A stretch of DNA of 64,000 bases from positions 66,682 to 130,681 of IMG/VR virus record IMGVR_UViG_3300044295_000252; one strand, 5' to 3'. This document shows, piece after piece, positions 22,631 through 61,004 of this stretch. Both the position numbers and the translations under genes were made by a program. The notes under the pieces are model-generated. The model did no database searches and was not told the origin of the DNA. It was given only the letters and a program-made list of their open reading frames with translations. This DNA is from a virus (Duplodnaviria > Heunggongvirae > Uroviricota > Caudoviricetes). Numbering within the stretch: the stretch's first letter is position 1; each line of letters begins with the position of its first letter.

Positions 22631-22909
22631 TTATTTTGAAAAGGTACCTAAACTCAAACCAAATAGTGTAGCTTCTTCGGCTAGTTCAAATCCTATGGTA
22701 AAACGATTACTGGTAATTGAACCTATCAAATCGCTGGCCGCAATATTTCTTTTACCACAATAGAATCTACCCTGTAGATTTTCATATATCCAATCAACAA
22801 CAGAGTCTATGTGGTCAGAGTTCAACTGAATAGTGACAAAATAAGGAGGGCAGTAAGCCACCCTCCTTAAATTGTAGGCGTTCAGCGGATTGATGTTGCT
22901 GTCTAACAT
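22631..22909 (-). CDS. hypothetical protein
   Basis: 92-aa ORF. Single-nucleotide stop/start overlap with the upstream gene. Confidence 0.45.
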   Translation of the reverse strand: MLDSNINPLNAYNLRRVAYCPPYFVTIQLNSDHIDSVVDWIYENLQGRFYCGKRNIAASDLIGSITSNRFTIGFELAEEATLFGLSLGTFSK

Positions 22910-24198
22910 TACCCTTTGAGATCGGCCGCTTGGTCGTAATGCGCAGTTTGTCCAAACGGTGCAACAATCTTGTCATTGCCATGAACGACAAAGATGGTGT
23001 CACAATAATCAGGATCTCCCCAGGAACCGCAGGGATAGCCATCAGTGAAAAAAACTAGTTTCTTGGGCTCAATGCCTTGCTCTTTCAAGTGATCCCAAAC
23101 ACACTCAAACATCGTGCCACCGCCACCATGCGGCTGATACGTGCCAATATCTTCCCCACTATCGCTGGTAAAGACCTGCGGGTTATACACAGTCGTATCA
23201 AAACTGAGAACATGCAAACGGTATTCTTCAAACTGATCCGTGATGCCTTTGATCTCAGTCAAAAAGTCACGAGCCTGTTCGCTACTAATACTACCGCTCA
23301 TGTCAATTGCAACACAGATGTCAATTTGCTCACCCGGCTTCATACCCGGCAACACTGCATCCATGTGCCAGCCCCTGCGGCTGGGACGCGCCCAGGTGAA
23401 GTCACTCTTAAGTGTAGCTTGGATCTGTTGACGAATAAGCTCACGCCAGTTCATCTTAGGATTAGTCATAGAGTCAATCATGCGTTTGACTCCTGACGGC
23501 AAGTTACCAGCACCCACAGCCTGCGCAGCCTGCAACACCGCAGCCTTCATTTCGTCCTTGATCTGCTGACGTTCTTCGGCACTAAGTTTGGGACGACCCT
23601 TGCCTTTCTTATCACCGTTGCCTTCGCTGTCACCTGAACCTTCGCCATCATCGTCATCATCCAAGTGCTCATCCAGTATCTGATCCATGAGCTGATCCAT
23701 ATCAATCTTCTCAGCATTTTCGTAGAGCAGATCATAAACTTCTTCCCAGCTCATGCCATCATATTTTGCATCATACAAAATAGGCACTTTGGTGATACGT
23801 TCGCCTACCCGCTGTTTAATCAGGTCTGCGTTAACGACATAATCCTGTGCCGCATTGCTAAGACGCGGATCGTGACGTTCGGTGCGACGACCCAAGTGGT
23901 CATAAACACAATGCAGGAGCTCATGCCCAAACAAGAATTCTACTTCTTTTTGGCTCAGCATGTTGACGAACTCAGTATTGTAATAGAAATTACGTCCATC
24001 TGTAGCCGCAGTAGGACACCATTCGTCAGCATTGACCAAAATTAAACGAGTAGCCAAGTTACCATAAAACGGTGACTTGAGCAACAGTGCGATACGCGCA
24101 GTGATCAGCTTCTCAACGACCTTAGCATCCAGTTTAGGATCTGTAGGTTTTACGCGAGCTTGCCGCGCTTGTTTAGTGGTAGTAACGCCTTGTGCCAT
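22909..24198 (-). CDS. VWA-domain protein with N-terminal HExxH metallopeptidase-like domain (MoxR partner, DUF2201-like)
   Basis: FGHELLHCVYDH zinc-binding motif. Acidic linker (DDDDGEGSGDSEGNGD). C-terminal VWA with DMSGSIS MIDAS motif. Immediately downstream of the MoxR ATPase. Confidence 0.8.
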   Translation of the reverse strand: MAQGVTTTKQARQARVKPTDPKLDAKVVEKLITARIALLLKSPFYGNLATRLILVNADEWCPTAATDGRNFYYNTEFVNMLSQKEVEFLFGHELLHCVYDHLGRRTERHDPRLSNAAQDYVVNADLIKQRVGERITKVPILYDAKYDGMSWEEVYDLLYENAEKIDMDQLMDQILDEHLDDDDDGEGSGDSEGNGDKKGKGRPKLSAEERQQIKDEMKAAVLQAAQAVGAGNLPSGVKRMIDSMTNPKMNWRELIRQQIQATLKSDFTWARPSRRGWHMDAVLPGMKPGEQIDICVAIDMSGSISSEQARDFLTEIKGITDQFEEYRLHVLSFDTTVYNPQVFTSDSGEDIGTYQPHGGGGTMFECVWDHLKEQGIEPKKLVFFTDGYPCGSWGDPDYCDTIFVVHGNDKIVAPFGQTAHYDQAADLKG

Positions 24199-24367: not shown

Positions 24368-25468
24368 TTAAACACTTGCCGCTGCTACGACGTAGCGGCC
24401 AAATCTCTTGTGAAACTCTGCAAAATTGCTCAGCTTGCCCGGAGTAATAGGCAGGTTATAGGTAGTGATTGCAGTGCGAGCACCCAGCACCACCAGCTCA
24501 GTGCTGAAGTTTGCCATCATATACTCAAAGAAATTATCCACCATTTTATGCCAAGCATCAAGCTTGCCATTAGCCTTGTCGTGCACATCTTTGAGCTCGT
24601 AGCACATGCTAATTGTCAGCGAATACATTGCGCTGATTTCTTTGATCTTGAGATCTTTAACCTTACCCTGCAGGATTTCCACCGGGTTAGGCAGTTGGCT
24701 GCTGATCTTGCGATGTGCCATGAACTTGCGAGCAAGACCTTCGCCTACTGCACCAGAGATCAGATTCATCAGCGTATCATTGTCCACGCTTTCGTCTGCA
24801 ACCAATTCGCTAACAAAACTCCAGCTTCGCGGAGTAGCGAATGAACGGCTGGAGCTCTTGGGATCAAAGTCAAACAGGTCCTGTTTAGCAAAGCCCAGGT
24901 AGCCGATAACGTCCTTGTGGATCGTGTTCAGGATTGCCCACTCTTCCCAGCTTTCGTGATCCACGCGCATTTCCAAGTGGACGAAACGGTTAGCCAAGGG
25001 GCTGGGCATGCGATACACCACACCCTTGTCGCTGTCACGATTGCCAGCAGCAACGATCACCACATTGTCAGGCAAAACATACTTGCCAACGCGACGATTA
25101 AGCACCAGCTGATAACCTGCTGCCTGAATCGCAGGCGCAGCGGAATTCATTTCGTCCAGGAACAGAACGATAATGGGATACTGCGACGCAAGTTCAGCGT
25201 CCGGCAGTTCAATGGGCGGAGCCCAGTCCATAACGCCTTTGTCTTTGTTGAAGAAGGGGATACCACGCAAGTCAGTAGGCTCCATAGTAGCCATGCGCAG
25301 GTCAATCATGTGACCGCCCATCTCGCGAGTAATTTCAGCGATCATATCGCTCTTGCCAATTCCGGGCGGACCCCAGAGGAAAACCGGGCGTTTGGATTTG
25401 AAGCAGCGAATCAGTGCCCGCTTGGCAGCGCGGCTGGTAACAGTAAGATTTTGTGAAGCAGTGCTCAT
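24368..25468 (-). CDS. MoxR-family AAA+ ATPase
   Basis: Walker A LWGPPGIGKS and Walker B VLFLDEMN. Typical MoxR length (366 aa). Confidence 0.85.
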   Translation of the reverse strand: MSTASQNLTVTSRAAKRALIRCFKSKRPVFLWGPPGIGKSDMIAEITREMGGHMIDLRMATMEPTDLRGIPFFNKDKGVMDWAPPIELPDAELASQYPIIVLFLDEMNSAAPAIQAAGYQLVLNRRVGKYVLPDNVVIVAAGNRDSDKGVVYRMPSPLANRFVHLEMRVDHESWEEWAILNTIHKDVIGYLGFAKQDLFDFDPKSSSRSFATPRSWSFVSELVADESVDNDTLMNLISGAVGEGLARKFMAHRKISSQLPNPVEILQGKVKDLKIKEISAMYSLTISMCYELKDVHDKANGKLDAWHKMVDNFFEYMMANFSTELVVLGARTAITTYNLPITPGKLSNFAEFHKRFGRYVVAAASV

Positions 25469-36458: not shown

Positions 36459-37172
36459 TTAGAATGCTTTAGCTACAGAAAACACTATTGCATTTTTGTA
36501 AAGTTTTTCACCAGCTACTGTATCTGCTGCCTTGGCTGCTGCACTTAGGCCTAGGTTCTTGTAAACATGAGCACCAACGTCAAGACCTGCAATGTTGTAG
36601 GTTGCGCCTACTTTGACGTCATTGTAAGCAAGATCTTTGTGACTTGAAACAATAGTGCGACCAATATGTGCATTAGCAGTTAGTTTGGCTGCGATGGGCA
36701 TATTCAAATCAGCTTGAACATATTTGCTGTTCTTGCTGTTACTTGCGCCAAAGTAATCGCCCAGTGACTGACTATATTTCACACTTACTGGACCAGTGGC
36801 AACACCAGCATAGACTTCGTGTGTATTACTTGCGCTGTTAAATTTATTACCAGCGCGGCTATAAAAATAGTTATAGCTACCAACATCAACAGTTACGCCC
36901 TTAATAACTTCTTTGCGGAAGCCTGCATAAAGGTCGTTTTCCATGCCAATGCTGTCAGTATAAAGCTGATTGCTTACACTGCTGTTCCAGTTACCAATAT
37001 AGAAGCCACTTTTATCTGCATAGTCAACACCACCCTGCAGAGCTTGTGAATTCTGTGTTTGGCTAATACCACGGAAACGGTAATCGGTAGTTACGCTTAC
37101 ATTACCGGTCACTTGAGCTTGTGCTACTGTGGCCACAAGCAAAGCCATTGCTGCAAAAAACATGTTTTTCAT
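36459..37172 (-). CDS. outer-membrane beta-barrel protein (porin-like; TorF/Gcw_chp-like)
   Basis: Signal peptide MKNMFFAAMALLVATVAQA. VTTDYRFRGISQT motif. Alternating amphipathic beta-strands. C-terminal ...VAKAF with terminal Phe (OMP beta-signal). Confidence 0.65.
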   Translation of the reverse strand: MKNMFFAAMALLVATVAQAQVTGNVSVTTDYRFRGISQTQNSQALQGGVDYADKSGFYIGNWNSSVSNQLYTDSIGMENDLYAGFRKEVIKGVTVDVGSYNYFYSRAGNKFNSASNTHEVYAGVATGPVSVKYSQSLGDYFGASNSKNSKYVQADLNMPIAAKLTANAHIGRTIVSSHKDLAYNDVKVGATYNIAGLDVGAHVYKNLGLSAAAKAADTVAGEKLYKNAIVFSVAKAF

Positions 37173-37376
37173 ATCTATTTCCTTTAATTAAAGTTAATAC
37201 CTTAAACCAATATTTAGTGTATAACAACTGCTGAGAAAAGTAAACAGTTAATTATGCCAAAACAATGGCACATCGAAATGTGCCACTGTGGTAGTTGGGT
37301 AACAAGGCCTATTTCCCGCCCCGTGAGGTTTACGCCGCTAGGCGAAGATCCTCAGAATAAACGTTGTCATTTGCGT

Positions 37377-37574
37377 TTATAGTTTTGCTTCATTAACGAC
37401 GATCGCCTGTCGTGCTGTCTGTTCCGTTACTCCTTGCCCTGTCGAAACCTTGTCACCCCCATCAGAAAGAATCTCTTTCATAACCTCAACTCGTCCATCT
37501 ATGTGTTCGTAAATACCATATTGTATGTTATCACAAACAAATAAGATTCTTCTAAGTTTTGGTTTAGCCTGCAT
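37377..37574 (-). CDS. hypothetical small protein (66 aa; MQAKPKLRRILFV..)
   Basis: Weak. Lies in a ~500-nt mostly noncoding, structured region. Start abuts the tRNA-like 3' element. Confidence 0.25.
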   Translation of the reverse strand: MQAKPKLRRILFVCDNIQYGIYEHIDGRVEVMKEILSDGGDKVSTGQGVTEQTARQAIVVNEAKL

Positions 37575-37587
37575 AAAAAATCCCTTT

Positions 37588-37615
37588 TGGTGGAGGTGAG
37601 GAGAATCGAACTCCT
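37588..37615 (-). ncRNA. tRNA 3'-half-like element (T-arm AGGAG-TTCGATT-CTCCT + CACCTCC-A-CCA); no complete cloverleaf
   Basis: Reverse-complement of 37588-37615 is aggagttcgattctcctcacctccacca. No matching 5' acceptor strand (GGAGGTG) within 500 nt. Confidence 0.3.
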
Positions 37616-37699
37616 GTCCAGAACACATTTTACTTCACTTCATACAGCAATAGACTACAGTATATATTTATTTTTAACCAAGGTCAAATTAAAGTCATT

Positions 37700-38008
37700 T
37701 TATGATTGCGGCTGAAGTTGTTTTTTTAAGTCGTCAACCGTCTTTACTATATCTAATTCCTGTGGTTTGGAATGCGGATTTAATGGTAATGGTAATTGTT
37801 GCCATTCTGATTCTGATACTGAACTCACCAGCGCAAGTTCATAAGCATGACCATCGGAGCCATAAAACTCCACAGTATCAAAACCAACTAAACTGTGCGC
37901 GGCCCGTTCTGCTACACGAGATAATTCCTGCAATGCAGCTGGTTCTGCCACAATATATGCTCTGGTTTTGGGCCCTGAATGCGAATATAAATGTAGTCTT
38001 GCTTTCAT
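37700..38008 (-). CDS. hypothetical protein (102 aa)
   Basis: ATGA overlap with the DnaE-like gene. Confidence 0.45.
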   Translation of the reverse strand: MKARLHLYSHSGPKTRAYIVAEPAALQELSRVAERAAHSLVGFDTVEFYGSDGHAYELALVSSVSESEWQQLPLPLNPHSKPQELDIVKTVDDLKKQLQPQS

Positions 38009-39681
38009 GTTATATGTGCTATGTCTTTTAGGTTAAGTTTTTTACTTTTATATACGGTAACATATTCGCTATTGTTTTTATAGCCTAGTTTGCCCATTCC
38101 CCATAATATAGGCTGTTCATGGAAACTGGCAGCATGTGGCAACACTACGTCCAAATACCTGCCATTGCCAGTACCCAACGTGGCAAAGGTAATATATTCC
38201 TTTGGTCCACTTTTGAAGACTCTATAATTAGCAATAAGACCACAAAACTCAATTTGCCCTGGGCGTCTTACTTCCTGACACACAGGTATAAATCTGTGAC
38301 TATGCCAGCGTCCATTCGCCATAAGATCGTTTATTTCATTACCTTCCATAATAGCGGGCACTGCGCCAGCTAGTTTGGCCTCCTGATAATATACCCAATG
38401 AGCATATGATCCCTGACAGTGTTTTAATGTGGCACGCCAAAACTTTTCAGGATTGTGTGCCTTTTGATAAGCTAGAGCCCAGATTAATCTTCCCAAATTA
38501 GTGGCATGTGCTCTACATAGACCAAAATGACTTAGCTCACGCAGTGCTAATAATACCTCATCACGTCTGGGATTATCACCCACCATTTGCATAAACTCAA
38601 ATATTTTTTCCTCGTTCTTTTTTGCGAATGCTCTGCGCCACATATCTGCTTCATATTGATTACAGCCCAATATCTCACCAATTAGCATTATGGCATCATC
38701 CTCAAACACAATATGATCGTTGAAACTATCCTGACTCCAGTCCTGGAAACTATTTGCGCGACGACGACCCATAGTAGCTACTGGTCTAATCAGGGCGGTA
38801 GCTAAAACACAATCCGAACGTGTGCGGGTTTTTAAGGCTCTGAACAATCTTTTCATAGCTGGACTTTCGCCTTGAGTAACACCTAACGTATTACCAGTCA
38901 TCAATAATTGAGCAGTATCATAGTCTTCTTCTGGATATGATAAAAGATCTCGTTGTTCTATCTCCCACAATTGACTTAATCCACGATTAGCTAAAATGTC
39001 TATTTTAAAATGTTCTAAATCCTCAATCTCATATTTGTCTAATAAAATTTGATTTTTTGCATTGATTAGGCTTTTTGGTACACTACGGTCAAAAATCAAT
39101 ATTCCACCACAGTGTTTACTGATGGCTCTTTTTTTGCCCTGCAACTTGTTGGCAAGACGTTCTGCTTCTGCAACGTATTGTTCTTCTACGACATCAGCAA
39201 GTTTAAAATTCCTTTTCAGCTTACCTTTTGCGCCATAGCGTTTTGCAGCTTCGCGTATTGCACTCTTTTCTTTATAGGTAACATAATTGCTTACTCGTGC
39301 ACTTTGCCCAGGCCAACGTTTGAATATTCTATTCATTACAGTTTCCTGTTGCCAATGTGGGAAATCTAGATCAATGTCTGGCAAGTCATCACGTTTTGGA
39401 TTCATAAAACGTGATAATGGAATTCTTTCCTGCACAGGATCTACATCGCTTATACCGAGAAGATAGCAGACAAGACTACTGCCTGCAGATCCGCGTGTGA
39501 TGTGTGGTATATCTTTTGTGAGATCTAATATTTCGCGAACACGAAGAAAATGTTTCGCAAATCCTAACTTTGCAATGATTTCTAATTCTTCTTCTAGTCT
39601 TTTTGAATATTCTTCTGTATTAGATAATTGTCTTGTGAATAGAGATATAAGTTTTTCAAGTTCATCAAATCTGTCGCCCAT
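38005..39681 (-). CDS. DNA polymerase III alpha (DnaE, C-family)-like catalytic protein lacking the PHP domain
   Basis: ELEIIAKLGFAKHFLRV, TRGSAGSSLVCYLLGISDVDP and RFMNPKRDDLPDIDLDF match the DnaE palm with catalytic Asp residues. C-terminal OB-like segment. Only 558 aa. Confidence 0.75.
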   Translation of the reverse strand: MGDRFDELEKLISLFTRQLSNTEEYSKRLEEELEIIAKLGFAKHFLRVREILDLTKDIPHITRGSAGSSLVCYLLGISDVDPVQERIPLSRFMNPKRDDLPDIDLDFPHWQQETVMNRIFKRWPGQSARVSNYVTYKEKSAIREAAKRYGAKGKLKRNFKLADVVEEQYVAEAERLANKLQGKKRAISKHCGGILIFDRSVPKSLINAKNQILLDKYEIEDLEHFKIDILANRGLSQLWEIEQRDLLSYPEEDYDTAQLLMTGNTLGVTQGESPAMKRLFRALKTRTRSDCVLATALIRPVATMGRRRANSFQDWSQDSFNDHIVFEDDAIMLIGEILGCNQYEADMWRRAFAKKNEEKIFEFMQMVGDNPRRDEVLLALRELSHFGLCRAHATNLGRLIWALAYQKAHNPEKFWRATLKHCQGSYAHWVYYQEAKLAGAVPAIMEGNEINDLMANGRWHSHRFIPVCQEVRRPGQIEFCGLIANYRVFKSGPKEYITFATLGTGNGRYLDVVLPHAASFHEQPILWGMGKLGYKNNSEYVTVYKSKKLNLKDIAHIT

Positions 39682-39751
39682 AGAATGCCTTTAAGTGCCA
39701 TAATATAGGATATTTATTTAGATGATCTGTTGAAATGTATTTTCTTTCACA

Positions 39752-40174: not shown

Positions 40175-41065
40175 TTACCAAACGATATATCCGCGACAAT
40201 AACCATAGGGACGATTTGCAGCATCAGTAAATGCCTGCTGCCAATTACTACGCTGATACCCCTGTGTCCAAAAATGATCAACATTAAGATCACCACTGCT
40301 GATCCAGCGTTGGGCCATACGCATACAGCTGATGAACTGTGGATTGCGCGGGCTTGGAAACATAACAGTAGCAGCCCGCCACAACAAATATTCATATGTG
40401 GTTGTAACCGCAGGATGTTTTGATGCAGCCTGTATCAACAGTCCATTTTCTTTTAAATTACTATGCTCGGTATCATTACCTAGATCAATTACTACATCAT
40501 AATCCTGACTGGTTCCCATTAGCAAACGATCGCCCCATAATTCCAAATTATGACTACCCAGTACATCAATACAGTTAAATTCCACGTGGTTCTGTAGCAG
40601 TGTGTGATATGCTACCCAGCTTAAAAATCCAGATCCTTTAATTAGTATACTGCGTTCTGGTCCACTACGTTCAGCAATTTCCCTAATACATTGCATAATA
40701 ACGTTCACACCACAGGCCACTGGTTCCAGTATGTAACGCTGATGCGGTTCTGGTACCGCGACATAAGTGCCGTAACGAGCATTATAATAATCTGCATAAG
40801 CAGGCTCGCCTCTAGTAGCCACATAATCACCCACACCCACATCAATAATATTTGATCCCACTGCTGTTACTTGGCCCAGTCCTTCGTGCCCCTGCATGTG
40901 TATGGGCAGCGGACCAAAACGACCCTGCATCATGTCTATGTCGCTGCGGCACACTCCAGTCATTACCGCACGAACTTCGATTTCATCTTTGCCAATATCA
41001 GGTTTATCCCAAGCGGTTTCAGTGAATTCGCCAGTACCGGCGGTCTGCAGAATCTTAACCTTCAT
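40175..41065 (-). CDS. Zn-dependent alcohol dehydrogenase-like (MDR superfamily) oxidoreductase
   Basis: GVCRSD catalytic-zinc motif, GHEG, Rossmann region (IKGSGFLSW). 296 aa. Confidence 0.7.
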   Translation of the reverse strand: MKVKILQTAGTGEFTETAWDKPDIGKDEIEVRAVMTGVCRSDIDMMQGRFGPLPIHMQGHEGLGQVTAVGSNIIDVGVGDYVATRGEPAYADYYNARYGTYVAVPEPHQRYILEPVACGVNVIMQCIREIAERSGPERSILIKGSGFLSWVAYHTLLQNHVEFNCIDVLGSHNLELWGDRLLMGTSQDYDVVIDLGNDTEHSNLKENGLLIQAASKHPAVTTTYEYLLWRAATVMFPSPRNPQFISCMRMAQRWISSGDLNVDHFWTQGYQRSNWQQAFTDAANRPYGYCRGYIVW

Positions 41066-41315
41066 TGTATTGCTCTCCTAAGTATTTCAATATAAAAAAT
41101 GTCTTCATAGATTCATCATAAAAATCCAAGCAAAAAACTACCCTATACTGATAGTCAATTAAATTAGCGTTCCAATAGGTTCCACTATGCCGTCTTACTG
41201 TGCAGCCCAATTCACGTCGCATCACATAAGTGATATTAATGCGTGGACCATATTCGGCCGATAATCGAGTGTATAGTGCAGCCCACTGCTCTGGAGTGAA
41301 TTCTAAGGGTTTCAT
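41055..41315 (-). CDS. hypothetical protein
   Basis: 86-aa ORF. Confidence 0.45.
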   Translation of the reverse strand: MKPLEFTPEQWAALYTRLSAEYGPRINITYVMRRELGCTVRRHSGTYWNANLIDYQYRVVFCLDFYDESMKTFFILKYLGEQYNEG

Positions 41316-41545
41316 TCTGTGAATTGATTACGACCCAACATAAAGAAGTCAACTTCGGCTTCACTGCTAAAGGCAAAACCAAAAGGATCGCCTCGCCAAC
41401 CGCGCACCACTCGAACGTCTAGTCCGCGCTCACGCGCCCAGGCCAGTGTTTCGGCTACGAAATCGTCACTAAATATTTTGCCTTCTTCCTCAGTAACCAT
41501 CAGTGGAAATTCTGTGATTGGATGTGGTCTGACTTTAAGTTTCAT
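41312..41545 (-). CDS. small protein, divergent member B1 of the second array
   Basis: ..FGFAFSSEAEVDFFML.. resembles the family motif but is not terminal. Confidence 0.4.
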   Translation of the reverse strand: MKLKVRPHPITEFPLMVTEEEGKIFSDDFVAETLAWARERGLDVRVVRGWRGDPFGFAFSSEAEVDFFMLGRNQFTE

Positions 41546-41546
41546 A

Positions 41547-41762
41547 TTAAGCGTATTTCAATAAAAATAGTGTGCGATCTTCGTTGGTATCAAAACAAAG
41601 GTCCACAGTTCTTGGTTGTCCTTGACCCCACTCAAGATGATAATTGCCGGGATGCACCTCTTTGAATACTGTTTCCATTTCTTTAAGAGTTACATCATCC
41701 GCAGGCTCATGAGCAAATGTTTCTTGTAGATGCCACATTGATTCTTCATATCGCATTGGCAT
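41547..41762 (-). CDS. FxL(R/K)W small-protein family, member B2
   Basis: C-terminus ...FDTNEDRTLFLLKYA. Confidence 0.5.
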   Translation of the reverse strand: MPMRYEESMWHLQETFAHEPADDVTLKEMETVFKEVHPGNYHLEWGQGQPRTVDLCFDTNEDRTLFLLKYA

Positions 41763-41793
41763 ATAATAAACAATTTTCCTATCTCAGTCAAGC

Positions 41794-42006
41794 TCACTGC
41801 CAACGTAAGATGAAAAGTGTAGCATCCTCTTCTCGGTCAAATCTTATATAAGGATCCCAACGACTAGTCTGTGCATTATACTCACGGTAAACCCAATCGT
41901 CAAAGTCAACAAAAGGATCAACACTATCTGATCTTGAAACCCAAACGTTATCGTAAAAATAATCAACTAACTTTTCAGAATATAATGTTTTAAGTATCTT
42001 AGTCAT
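41794..42006 (-). CDS. FxL(R/K)W small-protein family, member B3
   Basis: C-terminus ...FDREEDATLFILRWQ. Confidence 0.55.
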   Translation of the reverse strand: MTKILKTLYSEKLVDYFYDNVWVSRSDSVDPFVDFDDWVYREYNAQTSRWDPYIRFDREEDATLFILRWQ

Positions 42007-42226
42007 ATTGCTGTGCTAATATTTCAAATAATGTTGCATATTCGCTAAAGGGTTCGATGTGGAAACTGAACGTCCCACGCCAAACTATTCGTTTATAGCA
42101 CTGTTCCATCCAGACCCAACGATTACCAATGGTGCGATGTGGCAGTAGGGCAAAGGTCTTGTACCAGTTGATCTCTACGTTGACTATGGGATCACGCTCT
42201 AACACGAATTGGTATTTTCCTTTCAT
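41999..42226 (-). CDS. small protein, member B4 (divergent C-terminus ..ATLFEILAQQYD)
   Basis: Start at MKGKYQF. The track N-terminus MVRTEVA is the frame-shadow artefact. Confidence 0.45.
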   Translation of the reverse strand: MKGKYQFVLERDPIVNVEINWYKTFALLPHRTIGNRWVWMEQCYKRIVWRGTFSFHIEPFSEYATLFEILAQQYD

Positions 42227-42441
42227 AGCCACCTCAGTGCGAACCATACCTGTTGTTCTTTGGTCCTAAAGTACCAGGGCTTTTCAAAAACCGCATTGAT
42301 AAAAACATCATCTTCTCCCCAACCCTGTTGTCTACACCATTCACGCATTAGATTCCAATGTCGAAATTGTTCATGGGGGATGTCACTGGGGAATCTTGGC
42401 GTCACTCCGGGCCCACAGGCTTGAAATTTACGTTCGTCCAT
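42223..42441 (-). CDS. FxL(R/K)W small-protein family, member B5
   Basis: C-terminus ...FRTKEQQVWFALRWL. ATGA overlap. Confidence 0.55.
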   Translation of the reverse strand: MDERKFQACGPGVTPRFPSDIPHEQFRHWNLMREWCRQQGWGEDDVFINAVFEKPWYFRTKEQQVWFALRWL

Positions 42442-42444
42442 AGT

Positions 42445-42666
42445 TCACACCCACCTCAGGGTAAATAATGTTGCTAATTTTTCATCAGGAATATCCACTG
42501 TACAAATTATATCTATACCGTCTATGCCATGGGCTAAACCATATCGCAAAGACCAATCCTGCCCGGACAGGCCTCTAGCGGTATCGGCAGCGGTCACTGG
42601 CCCAATGTATTTTATGAGCCAGTCTACCATGCCGTCCCAGTCCTCATTTTGCGTGGAGATTTTCAT
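42445..42666 (-). CDS. FxL(R/K)W small-protein family, member B6 (paralogue of A5)
   Basis: C-terminus ...DIPDEKLATLFTLRWV. Start at MKISTQNED. ATGA overlap. Confidence 0.55.
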   Translation of the reverse strand: MKISTQNEDWDGMVDWLIKYIGPVTAADTARGLSGQDWSLRYGLAHGIDGIDIICTVDIPDEKLATLFTLRWV

Positions 42667-43046
42667 GCCCATTTCATCGCTGTTATTGTGGCCCATTTGC
42701 CTTTGCCCCAAATAAATTTAACTTCCAGCCCGGTAAATTTATGCTGCAAATTCCAAGCGCGACCACGACGGCCAACATTGGCTTCTAACCATGTGAGTAG
42801 AGCAGATAAATTATCCGGATACTTTAGTGTGATCACCGTGCCGGGAACCCAATCCCAATATTTGTTACTGCACCAACGTTGGAATCTTCGCCAACGTGAT
42901 ATACGACCCATAGTAAACATTTGACCTGCAGACCCTGTCATTGGTTGTGTGTTTATTAGTTCATTAGCTATTAGATTGGGCAGAACCTTGCGTATCATGG
43001 GTAAAATTACTTTCTGTATTTCCTTTATTTCTTTATCTTCACTCAT
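42663..43046 (-). CDS. FxL(R/K)W-related small protein, member B7 (ends ..ITAMKWA)
   Basis: 127 aa. C-terminus ...KWATITAMKWA. Confidence 0.5.
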   Translation of the reverse strand: MSEDKEIKEIQKVILPMIRKVLPNLIANELINTQPMTGSAGQMFTMGRISRWRRFQRWCSNKYWDWVPGTVITLKYPDNLSALLTWLEANVGRRGRAWNLQHKFTGLEVKFIWGKGKWATITAMKWA

Positions 43047-43279
43047 TGTGGCCACCTCAATAATGTCATGGTCAATTGCTCATCGGTGATCAATGCTCTG
43101 CAATCTTCTTTGCCGACACCGTTTATACAATAGACCATATCGTCGTCATCACCAAACGTGTTCCTGATCCAGCGTAAAATTTCACTGCCTCGACGGCCGT
43201 AAAATACACATTCCCAGCGACCATGATAGTAGCTGCTGGGATGAAAGTCCGCGTCACGAATATAAACAGATGGTTTCAT
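43043..43279 (-). CDS. FxL(R/K)W small-protein family, member B8
   Basis: C-terminus ...ITDEQLTMTLLRWPQ. Confidence 0.5.
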   Translation of the reverse strand: MKPSVYIRDADFHPSSYYHGRWECVFYGRRGSEILRWIRNTFGDDDDMVYCINGVGKEDCRALITDEQLTMTLLRWPQ

Positions 43280-43282
43280 TCT

Positions 43283-43579
43283 CTACGACCATTTCAACAC
43301 AAACAACGTCATATCCGACTCATTGAAAAATTCCAAGTGGCACCTGCCATCAACTTTTGTCAACACCGCACCTTGGTCAAATAACCAATCACCAAACTTA
43401 CGATACCGTATACTGTCCCACAAATGCACATTTGGTTTTGGTGGTGGCACCATATAATTTTGATACTGTGCAACGTACCCCGAGTCCGTCAGAAACTGTT
43501 GTGCAGCATTGCGTAAACAAGCCTCAGATTCCAGTTTGGCCAATTTCATGTCACTTATGTCCAGCGCAATACGAACCAA
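43283..43579 (-). CDS. FxL(R/K)W small-protein family, member B9
   Basis: C-terminus ...FNESDMTLFVLKWS. 5' end uncertain. Confidence 0.5.
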   Translation of the reverse strand: MVRIALDISDMKLAKLESEACLRNAAQQFLTDSGYVAQYQNYMVPPPKPNVHLWDSIRYRKFGDWLFDQGAVLTKVDGRCHLEFFNESDMTLFVLKWS

Positions 43580-43740
43580 GTTTCCTGCTGCGGGGTATCA
43601 AACAACAATCCACCAAAGCCATCGGGATAACCACCATATTCCTGTTCGATGAAATCCAAGACCTGGGTAATGTCTGCATGCCCGCGTTCTCGCAGAAGAT
43701 GCAACATTACCTTATGTTTGTAATCGTCAAAGTTGATCAC
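43555..43740 (-). CDS. FxL(R/K)W small-protein family, member B10
   Basis: C-terminus ...FDTPQQETWFVLRWT. ATGA overlap. Confidence 0.55.
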   Translation of the reverse strand: MINFDDYKHKVMLHLLRERGHADITQVLDFIEQEYGGYPDGFGGLLFDTPQQETWFVLRWT

Positions 43741-43961
43741 GAGAACTTCAATGCAAACATTATAGCATCTTGCTCGCGAGCAAAACTGTATATTAGTTCT
43801 TTGGCAGTATGCTCCACATGCCAGGGTCTGGATTCGTCAACCAAGTCTCGAAATTTAGCATAGGTTCCCACATTATCTACCATCCAAGCATTTATAGGAC
43901 TTTCGTTTATATAACGATTTGGCTTGTTAGGCTGCCGTAACACTATTCTAGCTGCAATCAT
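43737..43961 (-). CDS. FxL(R/K)W small-protein family, member B11
   Basis: C-terminus ...FAREQDAIMFALKFS. ATGA overlap. Confidence 0.55.
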   Translation of the reverse strand: MIAARIVLRQPNKPNRYINESPINAWMVDNVGTYAKFRDLVDESRPWHVEHTAKELIYSFAREQDAIMFALKFS

Positions 43962-44167
43962 GACCACCTCAACAAAAATAACGCCACATCCTCTTCTTTG
44001 GCAAACTTTATCCAGCCACCGTGATAATCCCAGCGACGGTCATTGGCGGGATTGCCAAATGTAGCAAAACACCAACCAAGCACATAAGGTGATGCAATAC
44101 TTCCCGGGGTCCAATAGGTTTCCCAGGCAAATTCACGGTCAGGTCTATGTCGAAAATCCCAGTTCAT
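43958..44167 (-). CDS. FxL(R/K)W small-protein family, member B12
   Basis: C-terminus ...FAKEEDVALFLLRWS. Confidence 0.55.
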   Translation of the reverse strand: MNWDFRHRPDREFAWETYWTPGSIASPYVLGWCFATFGNPANDRRWDYHGGWIKFAKEEDVALFLLRWS

Positions 44168-44168
44168 A

Positions 44169-44399
44169 TTAACCAACAGGTATACTAGACAATTTTACCC
44201 AAAAGAATTCCCGGTCATCAAAATGGTTTTGATCCTGTCGATCTTTGATGACCCGCACCGTACCATCATTGGACTCGGCCCAGGCCTTTTCGGCCATCGC
44301 CAATACCCGCATGGGCATGTTTAGATCATTTACTTCGCCCACATGTATTAGATAATGCGGCGGTGGCAAATGTTTTGGCAGTTTAAAATAATAGTTCAT
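44169..44399 (-). CDS. small protein B13 (no terminal motif)
   Basis: 77 aa, embedded in the array. ATGA overlap with the upstream member. Confidence 0.45.
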   Translation of the reverse strand: MNYYFKLPKHLPPPHYLIHVGEVNDLNMPMRVLAMAEKAWAESNDGTVRVIKDRQDQNHFDDREFFWVKLSSIPVG

Positions 44400-44770
44400 T
44401 GCCATTTAAGATGGAACAAAGTGAGTTCTTCGTCGCTTTGCAAATAAATGGTGCTATGGTAACGTGGCCCGCGTGGTTTGGTGCGAGTATCAAAAGACCA
44501 TTTTGTCCAGCTACGTTTCCTACCATGTTCATTCCACCACTGATATTCCACGGCCGGCCCCCAAGTGGCATAACACCACTCTCTTACGCCAAGAAACTCT
44601 TCAACTTCCATTCTAATCTGCCATTTGAAATAGCCAAACAGATCGTTTCTGGCGTCAATCTTACGTATAAGAAAAGATTTCACTGGTGCTGTTCCCATAT
44701 AAGCCTGTAGGATAGGATGTATCTTATATGCGGCCTGTTTGCCAATACGATACCACTTATTTGAGTTCAT
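44396..44770 (-). CDS. FxL(R/K)W small-protein family, member B14 (124 aa)
   Basis: C-terminus ...LQSDEELTLFHLKWQ. Start probably at MNSNKW. Confidence 0.5.
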   Translation of the reverse strand: MNSNKWYRIGKQAAYKIHPILQAYMGTAPVKSFLIRKIDARNDLFGYFKWQIRMEVEEFLGVREWCYATWGPAVEYQWWNEHGRKRSWTKWSFDTRTKPRGPRYHSTIYLQSDEELTLFHLKWQ

Positions 44771-45644
44771 CAATGATTTTGTGGATCCACAGATCACATT
44801 GTTGTTGACGATACCAAAAGTCATCATCGGCTAAATGATCCACGCAGTCCTTGATCATGTTGCCATACACATAATCAGGGCAAAGTCCAAGATCAAACCG
44901 CGATATGATGCCAGCGGTATAGAAGCTAACTTGCACATTGTCATCATCCAAACTGCGCCAGTCTGCAGTGATATCAATGTTGTAGTCAGGCCGCTCAAAG
45001 GCAACATGAACAAAGTCATCAACATCATACACGCCCTGGGGATTTATAGTGCCATAATCAGTACTGGTCAAATCACTGAGCCGCCAGTTTTGGCTACGCA
45101 TACTGCCGCTGGGCATCAAGGACTCATAGTCAGGTACGACGGCAGCTACAATACTCAGCAGGTGCGGCAATAGGTCACGGCTCACTCCGCCCCACGCATA
45201 TTGCCTCTGAGTAAACCAACTACCGGGACTGGGCACACGATCGTGATTGATCCAGTTCAGACGTATCAGTCGAGTTACCGGCAACATCGCTTGCCACTCA
45301 GCTATCCAGGGTCGCCACTGATTATTTTTGACCATTGTGATACGCTTATAGGGAAACGTATTGATCAAATTACGCCACCGTTGTTCAGTTTGCAGACCGG
45401 GCTTTTCCACGAATACGATGTTGCTGCGCTCAGCTACGCGATATGCAAGCTCTTCGTGAGTAAAATTGGGTGTACAAATATGCGCGACATCATAGTTCTG
45501 TGTCAGCGCAGAGTCAAGGTTGAGATATGTTGCATACTTATTGGTATCTGGATCTACGGTTACAACGTCATAGCCCAGAATCTCTAGCTGTTGTTTATAC
45601 AGTTTACCAATGCCCATACCTACTACCAATGCCTGTCTATTCAT
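44757..45644 (-). CDS. Gfo/Idh/MocA-family NAD(P)-dependent oxidoreductase
   Basis: N-terminal Rossmann fold VVGMGIGKLY. Conserved EKP motif (VFVEKP). 295 aa. Confidence 0.65.
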   Translation of the reverse strand: MNRQALVVGMGIGKLYKQQLEILGYDVVTVDPDTNKYATYLNLDSALTQNYDVAHICTPNFTHEELAYRVAERSNIVFVEKPGLQTEQRWRNLINTFPYKRITMVKNNQWRPWIAEWQAMLPVTRLIRLNWINHDRVPSPGSWFTQRQYAWGGVSRDLLPHLLSIVAAVVPDYESLMPSGSMRSQNWRLSDLTSTDYGTINPQGVYDVDDFVHVAFERPDYNIDITADWRSLDDDNVQVSFYTAGIISRFDLGLCPDYVYGNMIKDCVDHLADDDFWYRQQQCDLWIHKIIDELK

Positions 45645-51562: not shown

Positions 51563-52459
51563 TTAGTTACGTATAACCATATGATTTTTTATAATCTTAC
51601 CGTAAAATTCCATTTGTTCGCTGTGCCATAGGTTAAATTGATTGATATTTAACAAATTCATTATTAGCCCAGCACGTTCAGTATCTGCGGCAAAATCCTC
51701 GTCCTTGGATATACGATTAATAAAATTGACCCAGTAAGACTTTTCAACTTGGGACATATTTTTAGGTATAGCAAACAAAGCATAGGCAGTCGTTTTCATT
51801 TCCCTACCAAATGTTTCTTTAAAAGTTGGCACCCCCTGCAGTTGGGCGAATTTATGTTGACTGTTAACAGCCAAAATCTTTACGTTTTTATTGTTTAATA
51901 AGGGACTTATACCTGTCAAATTTGTCATTGAAAAATCAGTTTGTTTAGATAATACACTTAAAACAGACTGCGCGCCGCCGTTATAGGGGATAGGGCGTGC
52001 ACGGACGGATGCAGTTTCTAAAAATTCCAAAATTCCAATATGATTGAAAGACCCAGATGTAGAATACAACAGCTCTTTCCCTTGCATTATTTTTATGAGC
52101 TCATGCACAGTTTTAATTTCCAAAAAACTATGTGCAAACAAAATATTAGGTGAACTGCCTAATACCATTAAATCAAAACGTTCAGAAAAATTAAATGATT
52201 TTTCATCTGAGTAAAGTAAAGGGTCAGTTATGGCGAAACTCATGCCCATAGATATTAAATATCTTTTTTTTACTGCTTGGTCAAATTGTTGAATGGATCT
52301 TCCTTGATTTTGATTGATCACAATAGAATTTTTTTCATATTTTGATATGAGCCTAGCTATGGTATCACTCCAACCACCAGCCGCATATGGCACATAGATT
52401 ACATTTTGAGCGTGGGATATTTGGATAGAAAGCAAGAATAGGAATATAAGTAGCTTCAT
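51563..52459 (-). CDS. TctC/Bug-family periplasmic solute-binding protein-like (signal peptide)
   Basis: Signal peptide MKLLIFLFLLSIQISHA. IYVPYAAGGWSDTIARLISK matches the Bug/TctC N-terminal signature. The gene opens an AT-rich island. Confidence 0.5.
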   Translation of the reverse strand: MKLLIFLFLLSIQISHAQNVIYVPYAAGGWSDTIARLISKYEKNSIVINQNQGRSIQQFDQAVKKRYLISMGMSFAITDPLLYSDEKSFNFSERFDLMVLGSSPNILFAHSFLEIKTVHELIKIMQGKELLYSTSGSFNHIGILEFLETASVRARPIPYNGGAQSVLSVLSKQTDFSMTNLTGISPLLNNKNVKILAVNSQHKFAQLQGVPTFKETFGREMKTTAYALFAIPKNMSQVEKSYWVNFINRISKDEDFAADTERAGLIMNLLNINQFNLWHSEQMEFYGKIIKNHMVIRN

Positions 52460-53331
52460 AATGTTAAATCATTAATTATTTCTTTTACAGACTTAATGGA
52501 ATAAATGTAATCAATCGCGGTTCCAGCCAAAATATGACCTTGAGAGCCGCTGTTTAACCCTGTATATAAACTCTCAGTATGATTCATTTCTTCAGATTCA
52601 ACGTGCGATAAAATTAAGGCATTTTGTTTGTTGTATTTTCCAACCATTTCCTTCACATCTTTACTAAAACTGCTGACAACTTTTAGTTTTGCTTCCTCTG
52701 AAACTTTGCTTTCCTTGGAAAAAGCAAATAATGTTCCAATCCCAACTGCACACGCACCAATTTCCATCAACTGTAATATTTGAGATTTTGAATGTATACC
52801 GCCCGAGGGGATTAAACATTTTTCCGGAAACTTTTGTTTATAATCTATCAGCATAACATCTAAGGAATCTGTTGTGTTGCCTATTCTACCAGCAGCTTTA
52901 GAAGATTTAAAAATTAACCCATCATAAAAATCAAGATTATCTAAATACGATGTACTTTTCAAAAGCACTTTACATCCCAAATTTTTAATTTTTTCAAAAT
53001 TATTTTTCCTTTGTGTTGTGGTGATTTCGGCTCTATGTAATAGTTCACAATGACTAACCATTTTCAAAGCTTCAAGAACGTCATGGGAATTTAAGTTATC
53101 TTCGGGTACACTGAATAATAAATTTTTACCTTTTGATATCTTTTGAAATAAACTTAAATCGTTAACTAGCAAGTTATAATTTATTTTTCCGTTGTTCCTA
53201 TATGAGGACAAGGATAAACTGGGGAATGCTCCGGCTTTGAATACACTCAGAGCCAATTTTAAATCTGAAACACCATTCATGGGTAGACATATGATAGGAT
53301 GTTTACAATCAAAAAAATTTTCACAACTCAT
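52456..53331 (-). CDS. NMO/FabK-like FMN-dependent TIM-barrel oxidoreductase
   Basis: IICLPMNGVSDLKLALSVFKAGAF and GACAVGIGTLFAFSKES resemble the nitronate monooxygenase/enoyl-ACP reductase II family. Confidence 0.5.
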   Translation of the reverse strand: MSCENFFDCKHPIICLPMNGVSDLKLALSVFKAGAFPSLSLSSYRNNGKINYNLLVNDLSLFQKISKGKNLLFSVPEDNLNSHDVLEALKMVSHCELLHRAEITTTQRKNNFEKIKNLGCKVLLKSTSYLDNLDFYDGLIFKSSKAAGRIGNTTDSLDVMLIDYKQKFPEKCLIPSGGIHSKSQILQLMEIGACAVGIGTLFAFSKESKVSEEAKLKVVSSFSKDVKEMVGKYNKQNALILSHVESEEMNHTESLYTGLNSGSQGHILAGTAIDYIYSIKSVKEIINDLTL

Positions 53332-54532
53332 AAAGCTTAGATCTTATTTTAAAAATTGATTTGGGGTACAAGACGTTTTGATAGGAAAAATAATCCTCAA
53401 TCCAATTTGGTTGAATAGTATTACTTAAGTATTTTAAGCCATCTAAAAATATTTTTACTTGAGGTTCGTTACCTTTAGTCCAAAACCATGAATCCCTTGA
53501 ACTAAGGAAATTGCCCGTAATTGATTTAGTTATAAGCCTATTTGATATATCCCAGTAGGGATAAATCAATGTTTTAAAATTGTCTATTTCTAATAATTTT
53601 CTGCCCTGCCACAAAACAAACGCATTCTCGTCTTTTATTGATTGATTTTTCAATGAGTTTCTAATATTATCATTATTTGACAAGAAGTTTTTTATTATAT
53701 GCGCTTGTTTGATAATGATTTTAGCAGAAGCTGAAGTCGGTCCCCAGTAAAACAATTCATTTGATATAGAATTGTGATTTGAAGTTTGTTGTGGTCTTAA
53801 TGAAAAAATCCCATCTATCACATCAAGGAAATAGAAGAAAAATTTGCCATTTTTTATAGTCAATTTAGGCTTTTCTCCGCCCCACAGCAAACACACCCTC
53901 TTGCCGGATTCGGTTATTCTTTGCCATTCCGGAACAAGATTTTCTAATTCACCTTTAGCTTGGCAATATGCGCTGCCATAATTATTGATCCAATGTATGA
54001 AGTCTAATTGCGTATTTTTATTGTAAAATTTTAAGGTTTGTTCGGTGATGTCCAACAACCTTATTTTAGTTTTCAGTTTATATTGTTCAATCAAATTTTC
54101 TATTTTTGGCTTGCCTACGTTAAATACTTCAAAATTATGGAAACTATTTTGATTTCTAGACCCATTCATATTCGTTAAACAACATACTTCATCTAAATAA
54201 ATATTATTTCTAACAAAAGTCTCAAGTATATTGCCCGAATCTGCACCACCACCGTACATCAAAATTATGTAATCAAACCTATGTCTTAATTCTAATGCTT
54301 TGTCAATATAACATGCTTCTAAAGATACGCTGGGTTCCTGTTTCCAATCAAACGAACTAAAAAAATCGTCGTGGTAATGCCAACTTACATCTCGAGGATC
54401 ATTGGTTAAAAGCATTAGATCATACTTATTATTAAATTTTAAGTTTTGAAAAAGATAATAACCATAATAGTCAGTATCTGGCGAAAGAATAGATGTCATT
54501 TTACTAAAATAGTTATTTTGTTCTTGCTTCAT
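53321..54532 (-). CDS. hypothetical protein (403 aa), AT-rich
   Basis: Long ORF. No recognised motifs. Confidence 0.5.
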   Translation of the reverse strand: MKQEQNNYFSKMTSILSPDTDYYGYYLFQNLKFNNKYDLMLLTNDPRDVSWHYHDDFFSSFDWKQEPSVSLEACYIDKALELRHRFDYIILMYGGGADSGNILETFVRNNIYLDEVCCLTNMNGSRNQNSFHNFEVFNVGKPKIENLIEQYKLKTKIRLLDITEQTLKFYNKNTQLDFIHWINNYGSAYCQAKGELENLVPEWQRITESGKRVCLLWGGEKPKLTIKNGKFFFYFLDVIDGIFSLRPQQTSNHNSISNELFYWGPTSASAKIIIKQAHIIKNFLSNNDNIRNSLKNQSIKDENAFVLWQGRKLLEIDNFKTLIYPYWDISNRLITKSITGNFLSSRDSWFWTKGNEPQVKIFLDGLKYLSNTIQPNWIEDYFSYQNVLYPKSIFKIRSKLYEL

Positions 54533-55643
54533 ATTTCTTTATCATAGATTCGTAATGTTTAAAACTTTTTGCTTTAGGTGCACAGACGCCGCAGAAACAA
54601 GTAGGTTTGCGACACTGAATAACGGGTAACGTGTCAGCACTTAGTTGAGTTCGCAATCGATCCAATATAGCATCAGGGTCAGACAAATTACCAATGGGGC
54701 TTACTGTACCATCAAAATTCATTTTACAATCTTTATTGACATAAACATCACCATATACTTGTTTAACGAAAAGAAAGAACCAGTTCACACTGCAATACCA
54801 ACCACTGAACTTATTTTGAACGAAGAAGTCACGTTTTTTGAAGTTTTGATCCATGCAAACTTGTCTACCACCGCAACAGGCTCTGCCCACTTGGGTTAAG
54901 TCAGTTTGCGACTGTTGTGGTGTAATCTCTATGGATGTTTTGTAGCTGTGATCCTTATATAATTGATTAAACCACGCTATCTGCTGCTCATTATATGTGA
55001 AATGTTGCCAATGTGGTGGATGATCCAGTTGTCGCGGCAATGATGCAACATTGTGCTCACGTAACCAAGCCAACATCTGCTGCGCATCAGCAAATAATTC
55101 AGGTTCTGTATGCATTAACACGATACATTTCAATGAACGTCCACTATCGCGCAACATCAGCAAATTATCTCGGAATTGTTGCTTTTGTTTGGCTGAATTC
55201 TCTGTGTGGTAGCTAACCGTAAAGTGGTCAATCAGTGGGATAATGGCACTTAGTTTCTTCTTGGATACAATTGCATTAGTGGTGTTGGCAATACTAAGTG
55301 ACCAACGATCCTGATACTGCTGATGTTTGCTTTTTGCAGCTTGTAATATTTCCACAATGTGAGGATGTGCTAGTGCTTCACCTCCATATACATTTAGGTT
55401 GGCACTTCGCAGTGAAGGCAGTTTATACTGCATGTATAAGTCTGCATATTGATACATAAAGTCCAGACCCTGCAAACATTTCTCTAATGGCGGATGTTGT
55501 GTAGTGTTATCATGTCCACCATTATAACCAGTGCCGCAATAGGTACAGTCCAAATTACACTTTTGGGTTAATTCCCAGTCTAATAAGAATCCCATTTTGT
55601 TATTGGGATCTGGGAATGGTTCAAGGACAGAGAATGATTGCAT
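54513..55643 (-). CDS. Radical SAM enzyme, paralogue 5
   Basis: CNLDCTYC (Cx3Cx2C) near the N-terminus. C-terminal Cys-rich region (CCGGRQVC .. CRKPTCFCGVC) is SPASM/twitch-like. Confidence 0.7.
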   Translation of the reverse strand: MQSFSVLEPFPDPNNKMGFLLDWELTQKCNLDCTYCGTGYNGGHDNTTQHPPLEKCLQGLDFMYQYADLYMQYKLPSLRSANLNVYGGEALAHPHIVEILQAAKSKHQQYQDRWSLSIANTTNAIVSKKKLSAIIPLIDHFTVSYHTENSAKQKQQFRDNLLMLRDSGRSLKCIVLMHTEPELFADAQQMLAWLREHNVASLPRQLDHPPHWQHFTYNEQQIAWFNQLYKDHSYKTSIEITPQQSQTDLTQVGRACCGGRQVCMDQNFKKRDFFVQNKFSGWYCSVNWFFLFVKQVYGDVYVNKDCKMNFDGTVSPIGNLSDPDAILDRLRTQLSADTLPVIQCRKPTCFCGVCAPKAKSFKHYESMIKKYEARTK

Positions 55644-55719
55644 ACTGTAGTTTATAATGTACCACTTGTTAAGTCAAACACATTTATTTAAGTGTTTGTC
55701 TGCTTCTATAAGTAAAAAC

Positions 55720-59614: not shown

Positions 59615-59678
59615 TTTGATAAACTCCTTATCAGTTATGCCCAGCTCTATTGCCAGGACTTTTTGCTACTGTAACAAT

Positions 59679-60268: not shown

Positions 60269-60269
60269 G

Positions 60270-60787: not shown

Positions 60788-60796
60788 GCTGTCTCC

Positions 60797-61003: not shown

Positions 61004-61004
61004 G

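Follow-up and report, generated by a model that had tools for sequence, protein, structure and literature searches.

The DNA analysed here (hereafter the window, 64,000 nucleotides spanning positions 66,682 to 130,681 of the virus record IMGVR_UViG_3300044295_000252 in IMG/VR) encodes a protein of 558 amino acids (aa) that is almost certainly the core of a DnaE-type (C-family) DNA polymerase. The gene is intact, and belongs to a large, virus-only family of half-size enzymes. In the window protein the catalytic centre is complete but the PHP domain, the clamp contacts and the tau-binding tail of bacterial Pol III alpha are absent. Taken as a whole, the evidence presented below makes it fairly probable that this is a second, accessory polymerase, clamp-independent and non-proofreading, which serves repair- or recombination-linked synthesis beside a family B DNA polymerase (PolB).

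Gene and domain content

The gene and the elements identified within it, all on the minus strand, are listed below.

38005..39681, minus strand: gene for the PHP-less DnaE-type (C-family) DNA polymerase, 558 aa, an ATG-initiated open reading frame (ORF)
39478..39495, minus strand: RGSAGS nucleotide-binding ("GS") motif, aa 63-68; no variation at R63, G64 or S65 among 56 family members
39364..39381, minus strand: PDIDLD motif, aa 101-106, with catalytic D102 and D104, plus D106; P101, D102, D104 and D106 are invariant
39139..39273, minus strand: shortened thumb-like helical region, ~aa 137-181 (approximate boundaries), from the structural model and alignment
38998..39006, minus strand: K226-I227-D228, with the third catalytic aspartate, D228; K226 and D228 are invariant
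38407..38961, minus strand: fingers domain, ~aa 241-425, matched by PF17657; the alignment reaches Taq residue 845 and E. coli residue 787
38278..38406, minus strand: linker of ~43 aa with two short helices, from the secondary structure of the model
38035..38277, minus strand: C-terminal OB fold, aa 469-549, from the predicted structure

A stop codon is found three codons upstream of the ATG (the stop-to-stop frame is 38008..39690), and because the frame runs only these three codons further, an in-frame N-terminal extension of the protein is impossible. The upstream neighbour, encoding an ADH-like protein (40175..41065), is separated from the polymerase gene by a short gap of 494 nt, of which 484 nt lie beyond the upstream stop.

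Two Pfam families match the protein, namely PF07733 DNA_pol3_alpha (aa 20-231, 152.8 bits, E 1.8e-44, cut-off 23.9) and PF17657 DNA_pol3_finger (aa 244-364, 45 bits, cut-off 22), and no PHP, HHH or Hint/intein domain was matched in Pfam within the 558 residues. When compared with the PDB using phmmer, aa 27-420 align with residues 385-845 of Taq Pol III alpha, and aa 17-419 with residues 313-787 of E. coli alpha. The first residue is therefore the equivalent of approximately E. coli residue 297, which in these alignments lies ~25-40 residues beyond the end of the PHP domain. An earlier reading of the DNA letters (the original prediction) had the protein start exactly where the PHP domain would end; this was about right, but not exact.

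Active site and predicted structure

The two motifs on which the original prediction had based its assignment to the palm, fingers and OB part of Pol III alpha, GSAGSSLVCYLLGI and PDIDLDF, are located at aa 64-77 and aa 101-107 respectively. Counting along the printed alignment to the Taq enzyme, R63-G64-S65 of the GS motif pairs with R424-G425-S426, R91-F92 with R452-F453, P101-D102-I103-D104 with P462-D463-I464-D465, and K226-I227-D228 with K616-M617-D618. The published Taq catalytic triad is D463, D465 and D618, as in the 2006 structures of Taq and E. coli alpha, and the corresponding E. coli aspartates are D401, D403 and D555. The protein thus possesses a Pol-beta-like nucleotidyltransferase palm, with D102, D104 and D228 as its three catalytic aspartates.

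A structural model was generated with AlphaFold2 from an alignment of 56 family members (29-87% identity to the query). The model is confident and compact, with a mean predicted local distance difference test score (pLDDT) of 90.3 and a predicted template modelling score (pTM) of 0.89, and the Pol-beta-like palm is present, which was the structural check asked of the assignment. The thumb region consists of helices 138-148, 161-164 and 167-180, and the alignment skips ~25 Taq residues at this position. In the fingers, R299, P300, R349 and H392 are invariant, as are R91 (the counterpart of Taq R452) and all catalytic and nucleotide-binding residues across the 56 sequences, while the linker between fingers and OB fold is variable and rich in insertions and deletions. 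Domain matches, structural alignments, invariant residues and the model all agree, and directly establish the identity of the protein, its fold and its intact active site.

In cellular alpha subunits, the (HhH)2 beta-binding domain and an internal clamp motif sit between the fingers and the OB fold, and the tau-binding domain comes after the OB fold. In the window protein, only ~43 residues separate the fingers from the OB fold, and the (HhH)2 domain is absent; the chain ends nine residues past the OB fold, without a tau-binding domain. No clamp motif resembling QL[SD]LF or a PIP box was found in the polymerase, nor in the tails of 120 close relatives, while 4 of the 59 more distant members of the family do have a clamp-like motif (KQLNLFDYK is one such case). 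The absence of these accessory domains is a direct observation, and agrees with the proposal that the clamp- and tau-binding tail is missing.

An intact gene in a large viral family

The protein is about half as long as cellular DnaE, and scores far below the cut-offs of all NCBIfam DnaE models. Both features could be expected if it were an artefact of assembly, frameshift or intein insertion, or the remnant of a full-length dnaE that is decaying or no longer catalytic. When 5.8 billion proteins were searched with the polymerase, 1705 matches were returned. The best 120 have 79-100% identity and lengths of 554-584 aa, and their sources are many independent assemblies; ORFs of 554-558 aa that are identical or nearly so recur across separate assemblies. 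An exhaustive HMMER search of 50%-identity representatives yielded 590 proteins at E <= 1e-30; the top representatives (33-56% identity), from dozens of clusters, are mostly 540-630 aa in length and align from their own N-terminus, and across the family alignment the N-terminus of the polymerase is conserved from Met1. In IMG/VR the family occupies at least 575 loci, 69 of which are close relatives (57-89% identity, with 56 of the 69 at 74% or above). Conserved length and family size are thus matters of direct count. The same numbers show the half-size form to be less rare than the original prediction had supposed, and an even smaller, split form had already been described in jumbo phages of this kind (PMC7824862).

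The gene is also under strong purifying selection: in comparisons with six relatives, the proportion of differing sites is 0.73-0.85 at synonymous positions (pS), which are saturated, yet only 0.10-0.30 at non-synonymous positions (pN), with pN values of 0.10-0.16 where pS is 0.82-0.85. Together with the confident, compact fold, the invariant catalytic and nucleotide-binding residues, the upstream stop and the absence of a Hint/intein domain, this makes an artefact or a remnant extremely unlikely. An origin from a longer ORF, by frameshift or by an intein, which had been named as something to check, is ruled out by the upstream stop, the lack of a Hint domain, the lack of any frame encoding PHP, and the conserved length.

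Another explanation for the short length is that Pol III alpha is split in this phage, so that the protein forms a single subunit and a second gene, at some other place in the genome, supplies the PHP or exonuclease half; the original prediction had envisaged such a partner outside the window. Split C-family polymerases do exist in phages, as the core found in Pseudomonas phage PA5oct is encoded by two genes 43 kb apart, and the PHROG families 13169 and 7513 resemble N-terminal pieces that stop just short of the PDxD motif. However, a hidden Markov model (HMM) built from 29 DnaE PHP domains, which detected two phage DnaE PHP domains used as positive controls (E 3e-12 and 8e-9), found no DnaE-type PHP domain among the window ORFs in all six frames (best E 1.4). 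The result was equally negative for LR756508.1, the complete 484-kb genome of a related uncultured phage (best E 0.085), and for the complete PA5oct genome. The statement that no separate PHP ORF lies near the polymerase gene is therefore upheld, and a PHP partner further away is disfavoured. In addition, an HMM of the polymerase family gives one full-length match in the window and one in LR756508.1, indicating that no part of the core has been split off, in line with the conserved N-terminus. I consider a split subunit very unlikely. The search for partners did provide one candidate of another kind, an exonuclease gene at the left edge of the window, described below.

No close relative of the polymerase was found in GTDB genomes, the alignment being too divergent for the scan, and no gene neighbourhood conserved across the family was identified. 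Scans for promoters and terminators around the gene gave counts no better than those in shuffled sequence.

Comparison with known polymerases

The closest described concept is that of the group 2.2 jumbo phages, which were reported to encode a classic family B polymerase together with a minimal Pol III alpha whose core is divided between an NTP-binding and a Mg/template-binding protein (Iyer, Anantharaman, Krishnan, Burroughs & Aravind, 2021, PMC7824862). In PA5oct, two genes 43 kb apart, both annotated "hypothetical protein" and located with the HMM of the polymerase family, are the N- and C-terminal units of this split enzyme. EST35_0288 (169 aa; MK797984.1 187516-188025) contains the RGS motif, and its end falls exactly in front of the PDxD position (family HMM E 3.8e-10), and EST35_0220 (200 aa; MK797984.1 143938-144540) starts with DVDIDV and contains KIDLL, IRPS and KKAHA (family HMM E 5e-4). 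Like the window polymerase, the PA5oct form is phage-specific, PHP-less and devoid of the bacterial accessory domains, and is found in the same kind of T4-related jumbo phage, with a MoxR and vWA-peptidase pair and a gp23-type capsid; the RGS, DxDxD, KxD, RP and K.HA motifs are common to both. In contrast, the PA5oct form is broken into two genes exactly between the RF(L/M) and PDxD motifs. It has neither thumb nor OB fold and almost no fingers, and its similarity to the window polymerase is remote. The latter is a single chain with full fingers and OB fold, and is much closer to cellular DnaE (Pfam E 2e-44) than the split form is. The window polymerase is thus an unsplit, fuller variant of the described "minimal Pol III alpha" idea; no paper describing an unsplit, half-size phage form was found in the literature.

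Compared with bacterial DnaE1 (Taq 2HPI, E. coli 2HNH/5FKU, M. tuberculosis 7PU7), which is 1160-1220 aa long, the window polymerase (558 aa) has no PHP domain, a shorter thumb, a ~43-aa linker in place of the (HhH)2 domain and clamp motif, and no tau-binding domain. All 12 NCBIfam models for DnaE1, DnaE2, DnaE3 and PolC score far below their cut-offs (TIGR00594, 150.5 against 434 bits). By E-value, the best of these matches is to DnaE2/ImuC (NF004225, 168.8 bits, cut-off 939), and some sources name close relatives of the polymerase "error-prone DNA polymerase", a name given to DnaE2/ImuC. Both would be non-proofreading C-family enzymes that act beside a main replicase. However, DnaE2 retains an (inactive) PHP domain and the C-terminal domains, and works with ImuA and ImuB, whereas the window polymerase has neither the PHP nor the C-terminal domains, nor an imuA-imuB context.

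The DnaE proteins of cultured phages (Pbunavirus gp57, Nickievirus, and Streptomyces, Mycobacterium and Gordonia phages) are 25-38% identical to the window polymerase in the core, but are 930-1350 aa in length and possess an N-terminal PHP domain, which is matched by the PHP HMM. Their genes sit in replication modules, beside exonuclease and helicase genes.

The C-family polymerases studied so far all have at least 1000 aa, and the PHP domain, clamp contacts and tau tether are deemed integral to folding, fidelity and processivity. The abundant and strongly conserved 558-aa form, with its complete active site, provides a natural definition of the minimal functional core of the C family, and is small enough for easy biochemistry and structural work. 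The graded series from 1160 aa, through 558 aa, to 169 + 200 aa also bears on the route by which Pol III alpha was built up, or pared down.

Proposed function

The window polymerase is predicted to be a catalytically competent minimal C-family core, in which a two-metal palm would act with a short thumb, the fingers would bind the incoming nucleotide and the template, and the OB fold would hold the single-stranded template. Since the two-metal site is intact, and the nucleotide-binding residues, fingers and OB fold are under selection, a primed single-stranded template should be copied. The absence of the PHP domain suggests that there is no intrinsic proofreading, and no surface for docking epsilon as in E. 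coli. Likewise, because the beta-binding domain, the clamp motif and the tau tail are absent, the enzyme would not plug into the host replisome, and would probably be distributive. I therefore infer low processivity and low fidelity.

The genomic context points to an accessory role rather than that of main replicase. The only complete genome with an orthologue of the polymerase (574 aa, 37% identity) is LR756508.1, which also encodes a PolB with exonuclease and polymerase domains, and a DnaQ-like exonuclease; PA5oct encodes a PolB in addition to the split minimal Pol III alpha units. In phages of the PA5oct/Atu_ph07 type, the main replicase is a T4-like, proofreading family B polymerase. Because LR756508.1, PA5oct and the group 2.2 phages have PolB, the window polymerase is best seen in a second, specialised role, which may be short-patch, gap-filling, recombination-dependent or repair synthesis, or the copying of a damaged or special template, possibly in cooperation with a superfamily 2 (SF2) helicase. 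Of the options raised by the original prediction, that of a specialised replicase or repair enzyme is the one that the evidence favours. A related suggestion has been made for the minimal Pol III alpha (Iyer et al., 2021, PMC7824862), namely that it cooperates with PolB, either in making one of the strands or in repair. If the window polymerase does act beside a family B replicase, it would offer a tractable example of labour division between bacterial-type and archaeo-eukaryotic-type polymerases within one phage.

In LR756508.1 (484 kb), the PolB gene (259348-262413; L018 14348-17413) is interrupted by a Hint/intein module after motif A. In this genome, ~500 nt that include a 94-aa ORF separate the polymerase orthologue from an EF-G gene downstream of it.

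Alternatively, the window polymerase could itself be the main replicase, replacing the family B enzyme and relying on separate partners, namely a DEDDh RNase_T proofreader, a phage clamp or helicase, and a ligase. A candidate for the first of these is cut by the left edge of the window.

3..107, plus strand: gene for a DEDDh RNase_T-type 3'-5' exonuclease, 174 aa, of which only the 3' end is in the window

Window positions 3-107 translate to the C-terminus of this exonuclease, and the full gene, at locus L176 8234-8758, matches PF00929 and contains the D-x-E, DNNGFD and H-x4-D motifs. Also beyond the left edge are an eIF-1a/IF1-like ORF and an ATP-dependent DNA ligase, the latter ~6 kb outside the window; together with the exonuclease gene, they occupy L176 1551-2972 and 8234-8993.

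Several observations weigh against an accessory role and in favour of this alternative. The exonuclease and ligase at or beyond the left edge are compatible with a self-contained replication module. No PolB or other polymerase was found in the 64-kb window and its flanks (~8 kb on each side, ~16 kb in total), and in IMG/VR the contigs that carry an abundant clade of 983-aa PolBs do not overlap with those that carry the polymerase clade. Similarly, among the top 120 homologues of the PA5oct PolB, no cluster has a longest contig that matches a polymerase-clade contig, and clustering of the PolBs of the 983-aa clade singled out no candidate. The missing clamp motif is negative evidence only, as T4-type clamp-binding tails are poorly defined. 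Finally, the gene is very strongly conserved and abundant, and PF07733 is the only gene that over half of the marine jumbo phages in the PGC_A group have in common (Weinheimer & Aylward, 2022, PMC9123017).

On the other hand, the related complete genome has a proofreading PolB as well, and the phage is PA5oct-like, PA5oct and the other group 2.2 phages replicating with PolB. The surface for docking epsilon, provided by PHP in E. coli, is absent, as is a clamp-binding motif. The exonuclease is a candidate proofreader in trans, but its gene lies ~38 kb from that of the polymerase, to which it shows no linkage. I consider it rather unlikely that the window polymerase is the main replicase, and retain the accessory, repair- or recombination-linked enzyme as the preferred reading.

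Possible partners and helicase-fused relatives

The immediate neighbours of the polymerase gene are the ADH-like gene, a short ORF and a transfer-messenger RNA (tmRNA) gene; no helicase gene is adjacent to it in the window. The short ORF may be a companion specific to this clade.

37700..38008, minus strand: 102-aa ORF, overlapping the stop codon of the polymerase gene by 4 nt (ATGA)

This arrangement downstream of the polymerase is kept in the close clade (loci L002-L006), and all 13 homologues of the ORF belong to that clade, with RLHLY.H, GSDGH.YEL and E.EWQ..P.P invariant. It is fast-evolving, with 39% identity between two phages whose polymerases are 81% identical, and is absent beside more distant members of the polymerase family. 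Searches including Pfam, PHROG and NCBIfam gave no family or fold match for it.

The closest longer relatives of the window polymerase are metagenomic fusions of an SF2 helicase to DnaE (P0149, P0153, P0158, P0161, P0176, P0179 and P0185), with 37-40% identity. They share its PHP-less core and C-terminal region, but carry an N-terminal ResIII/DEAD + Helicase_C module of ~380-480 aa that the window polymerase does not have. For the classification of the fused helicase, the PDB gave no informative match, and PHROG only the generic label "DNA helicase". Since these fusions contain the same PHP-less core, they suggest helicase-coupled synthesis, and they point to a functional partner that can be tested.

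One of the fusions, P0153, is a 984-aa protein 40% identical to the window protein, encoded at L024/L025 10001-12955 on the contigs JGI Ga0102945_1000059 (41 kb) and ENA ERZ27257077 k141_135343 (76.7 kb). The genes around it encode a RING finger protein, eIF-1a, a rhodopsin of viral type, an aquaporin, and CRAL_TRIO and DUF2828 proteins, and the contig looks like that of a eukaryotic giant virus. For other fusions, the contigs were too short to give an informative context. A previous report restricted C-family polymerases to bacteriophages (Kazlauskas et al., 2016, PMC4889955), and nothing relevant was found in the literature for Nucleocytoviricota together with "DNA polymerase III".

A broader proposal is that the PHP-less DnaEs of 540-630 aa and the SF2-helicase fusions form a single virus-specific lineage of self-sufficient C-family polymerases, spanning huge phages and, judging from the one contig with P0153, eukaryotic giant viruses as well. 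Such a lineage would represent either a new type of helicase-coupled strand-displacement replicase, or a form of Pol III alpha close to the ancestor that preceded the acquisition of PHP, clamp and tau contacts. I regard this as doubtful.

The phage and its other genes

The window is part of a jumbo phage of the PA5oct/Atu_ph07 type ("group 2.2"). This assignment is based on the presence of a MoxR and vWA-metallopeptidase pair, which Iyer et al. (2021, PMC7824862) name as a chaperone pair that marks the group 2.2 jumbo phages, and of a gp23-type capsid fragment.

24368..25468, minus strand: MoxR AAA+ ATPase, 53% identical to the PA5oct protein
22909..24198, minus strand: DUF2201 metallopeptidase-vWA protein, 46% identical to the PA5oct protein, adjoining MoxR
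37263..37701, minus strand: two-piece (permuted) tmRNA of betaproteobacterial type (Rfam beta_tmRNA 117.7 bits, tmRNA_permuted 144.7 bits)

The best phage matches of the vWA protein are in Sinorhizobium phage Phosso and Pseudomonas phage PA5oct, followed by Atu_ph07 and Rak2-like phages. PA5oct has homologues for 13 window ORFs, including MoxR and proteins of the baseplate region, while LR756508.1 has them for only 5. The genome is probably ~0.33 Mb in size, since loci of the close polymerase clade are found on IMG/VR contigs of up to 337,119 and 320,541 bp, namely IMGVR_UViG_3300023174_005338 and IMGVR_UViG_3300011113_000640, and on the 337,032-bp ENA contig ERZ2680843 NODE_36, which carries a gene 81% identical to the polymerase.

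The host is probably a betaproteobacterium, as indicated by the type of the tmRNA and by two host-like auxiliary genes typical of Betaproteobacteria, for a Gcw_chp outer-membrane protein (36459..37172, minus strand) and a TctC/Bug periplasmic receptor (51563..52459, minus strand). The tmRNA gene is directly downstream of the polymerase gene and the 102-aa ORF, and its tag, as predicted by ARAGORN, is ANDNVYSEDLRLAA.

The window also encodes ThyX and an RNA ligase, and a further host-like auxiliary element, the NAD salvage pair NAMPT and NMNAT-Nudix (58235..62045, minus strand). Six radical-SAM genes are arranged in two clusters (11958..17100, plus strand, and 54513..57024); several have N-terminal SPASM domains, and they may encode peptide- or nucleotide-modifying enzymes. 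The region 52001..56000 is an island of low guanine-cytosine content (0.32-0.37, compared to 0.42-0.50 elsewhere), which may be a recent acquisition. It contains an NMO-like gene, a 403-aa ORF without known function and a radical-SAM gene, and adjoins the TctC/Bug-type receptor gene. A group I intron (62466..62660, minus strand; Rfam RF00028, 55.9 bits) is located between an 89-aa ORF and a dCMP deaminase gene (63296..63724), with a 197-aa ORF (62717..63310) beside it on the opposite strand.

Lastly, at least 12 small ORFs (61-143 aa; 41055..44827, minus strand), paralogous to one another and belonging to no Pfam family, are arranged in tandem. Each has an acidic residue near its end and then a hydrophobic ..LFxL(R/K)(W/Y) tail, as in DATLFILRWQ, MTLFVLKWS and VALFLLRWS. 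With regard to a gp23-type capsid protein, a Gp23 N-terminal fragment is present in the window, in a 130-aa member of this array (42663..43055, minus strand): its first ~40 residues match the N-terminal propeptide of T4 Gp23 (PF07068, 37.7 bits), and over 48 aa it shares 48% identity with the head precursor of PA5oct. The product of this ORF may be an internal protein targeted to the capsid.

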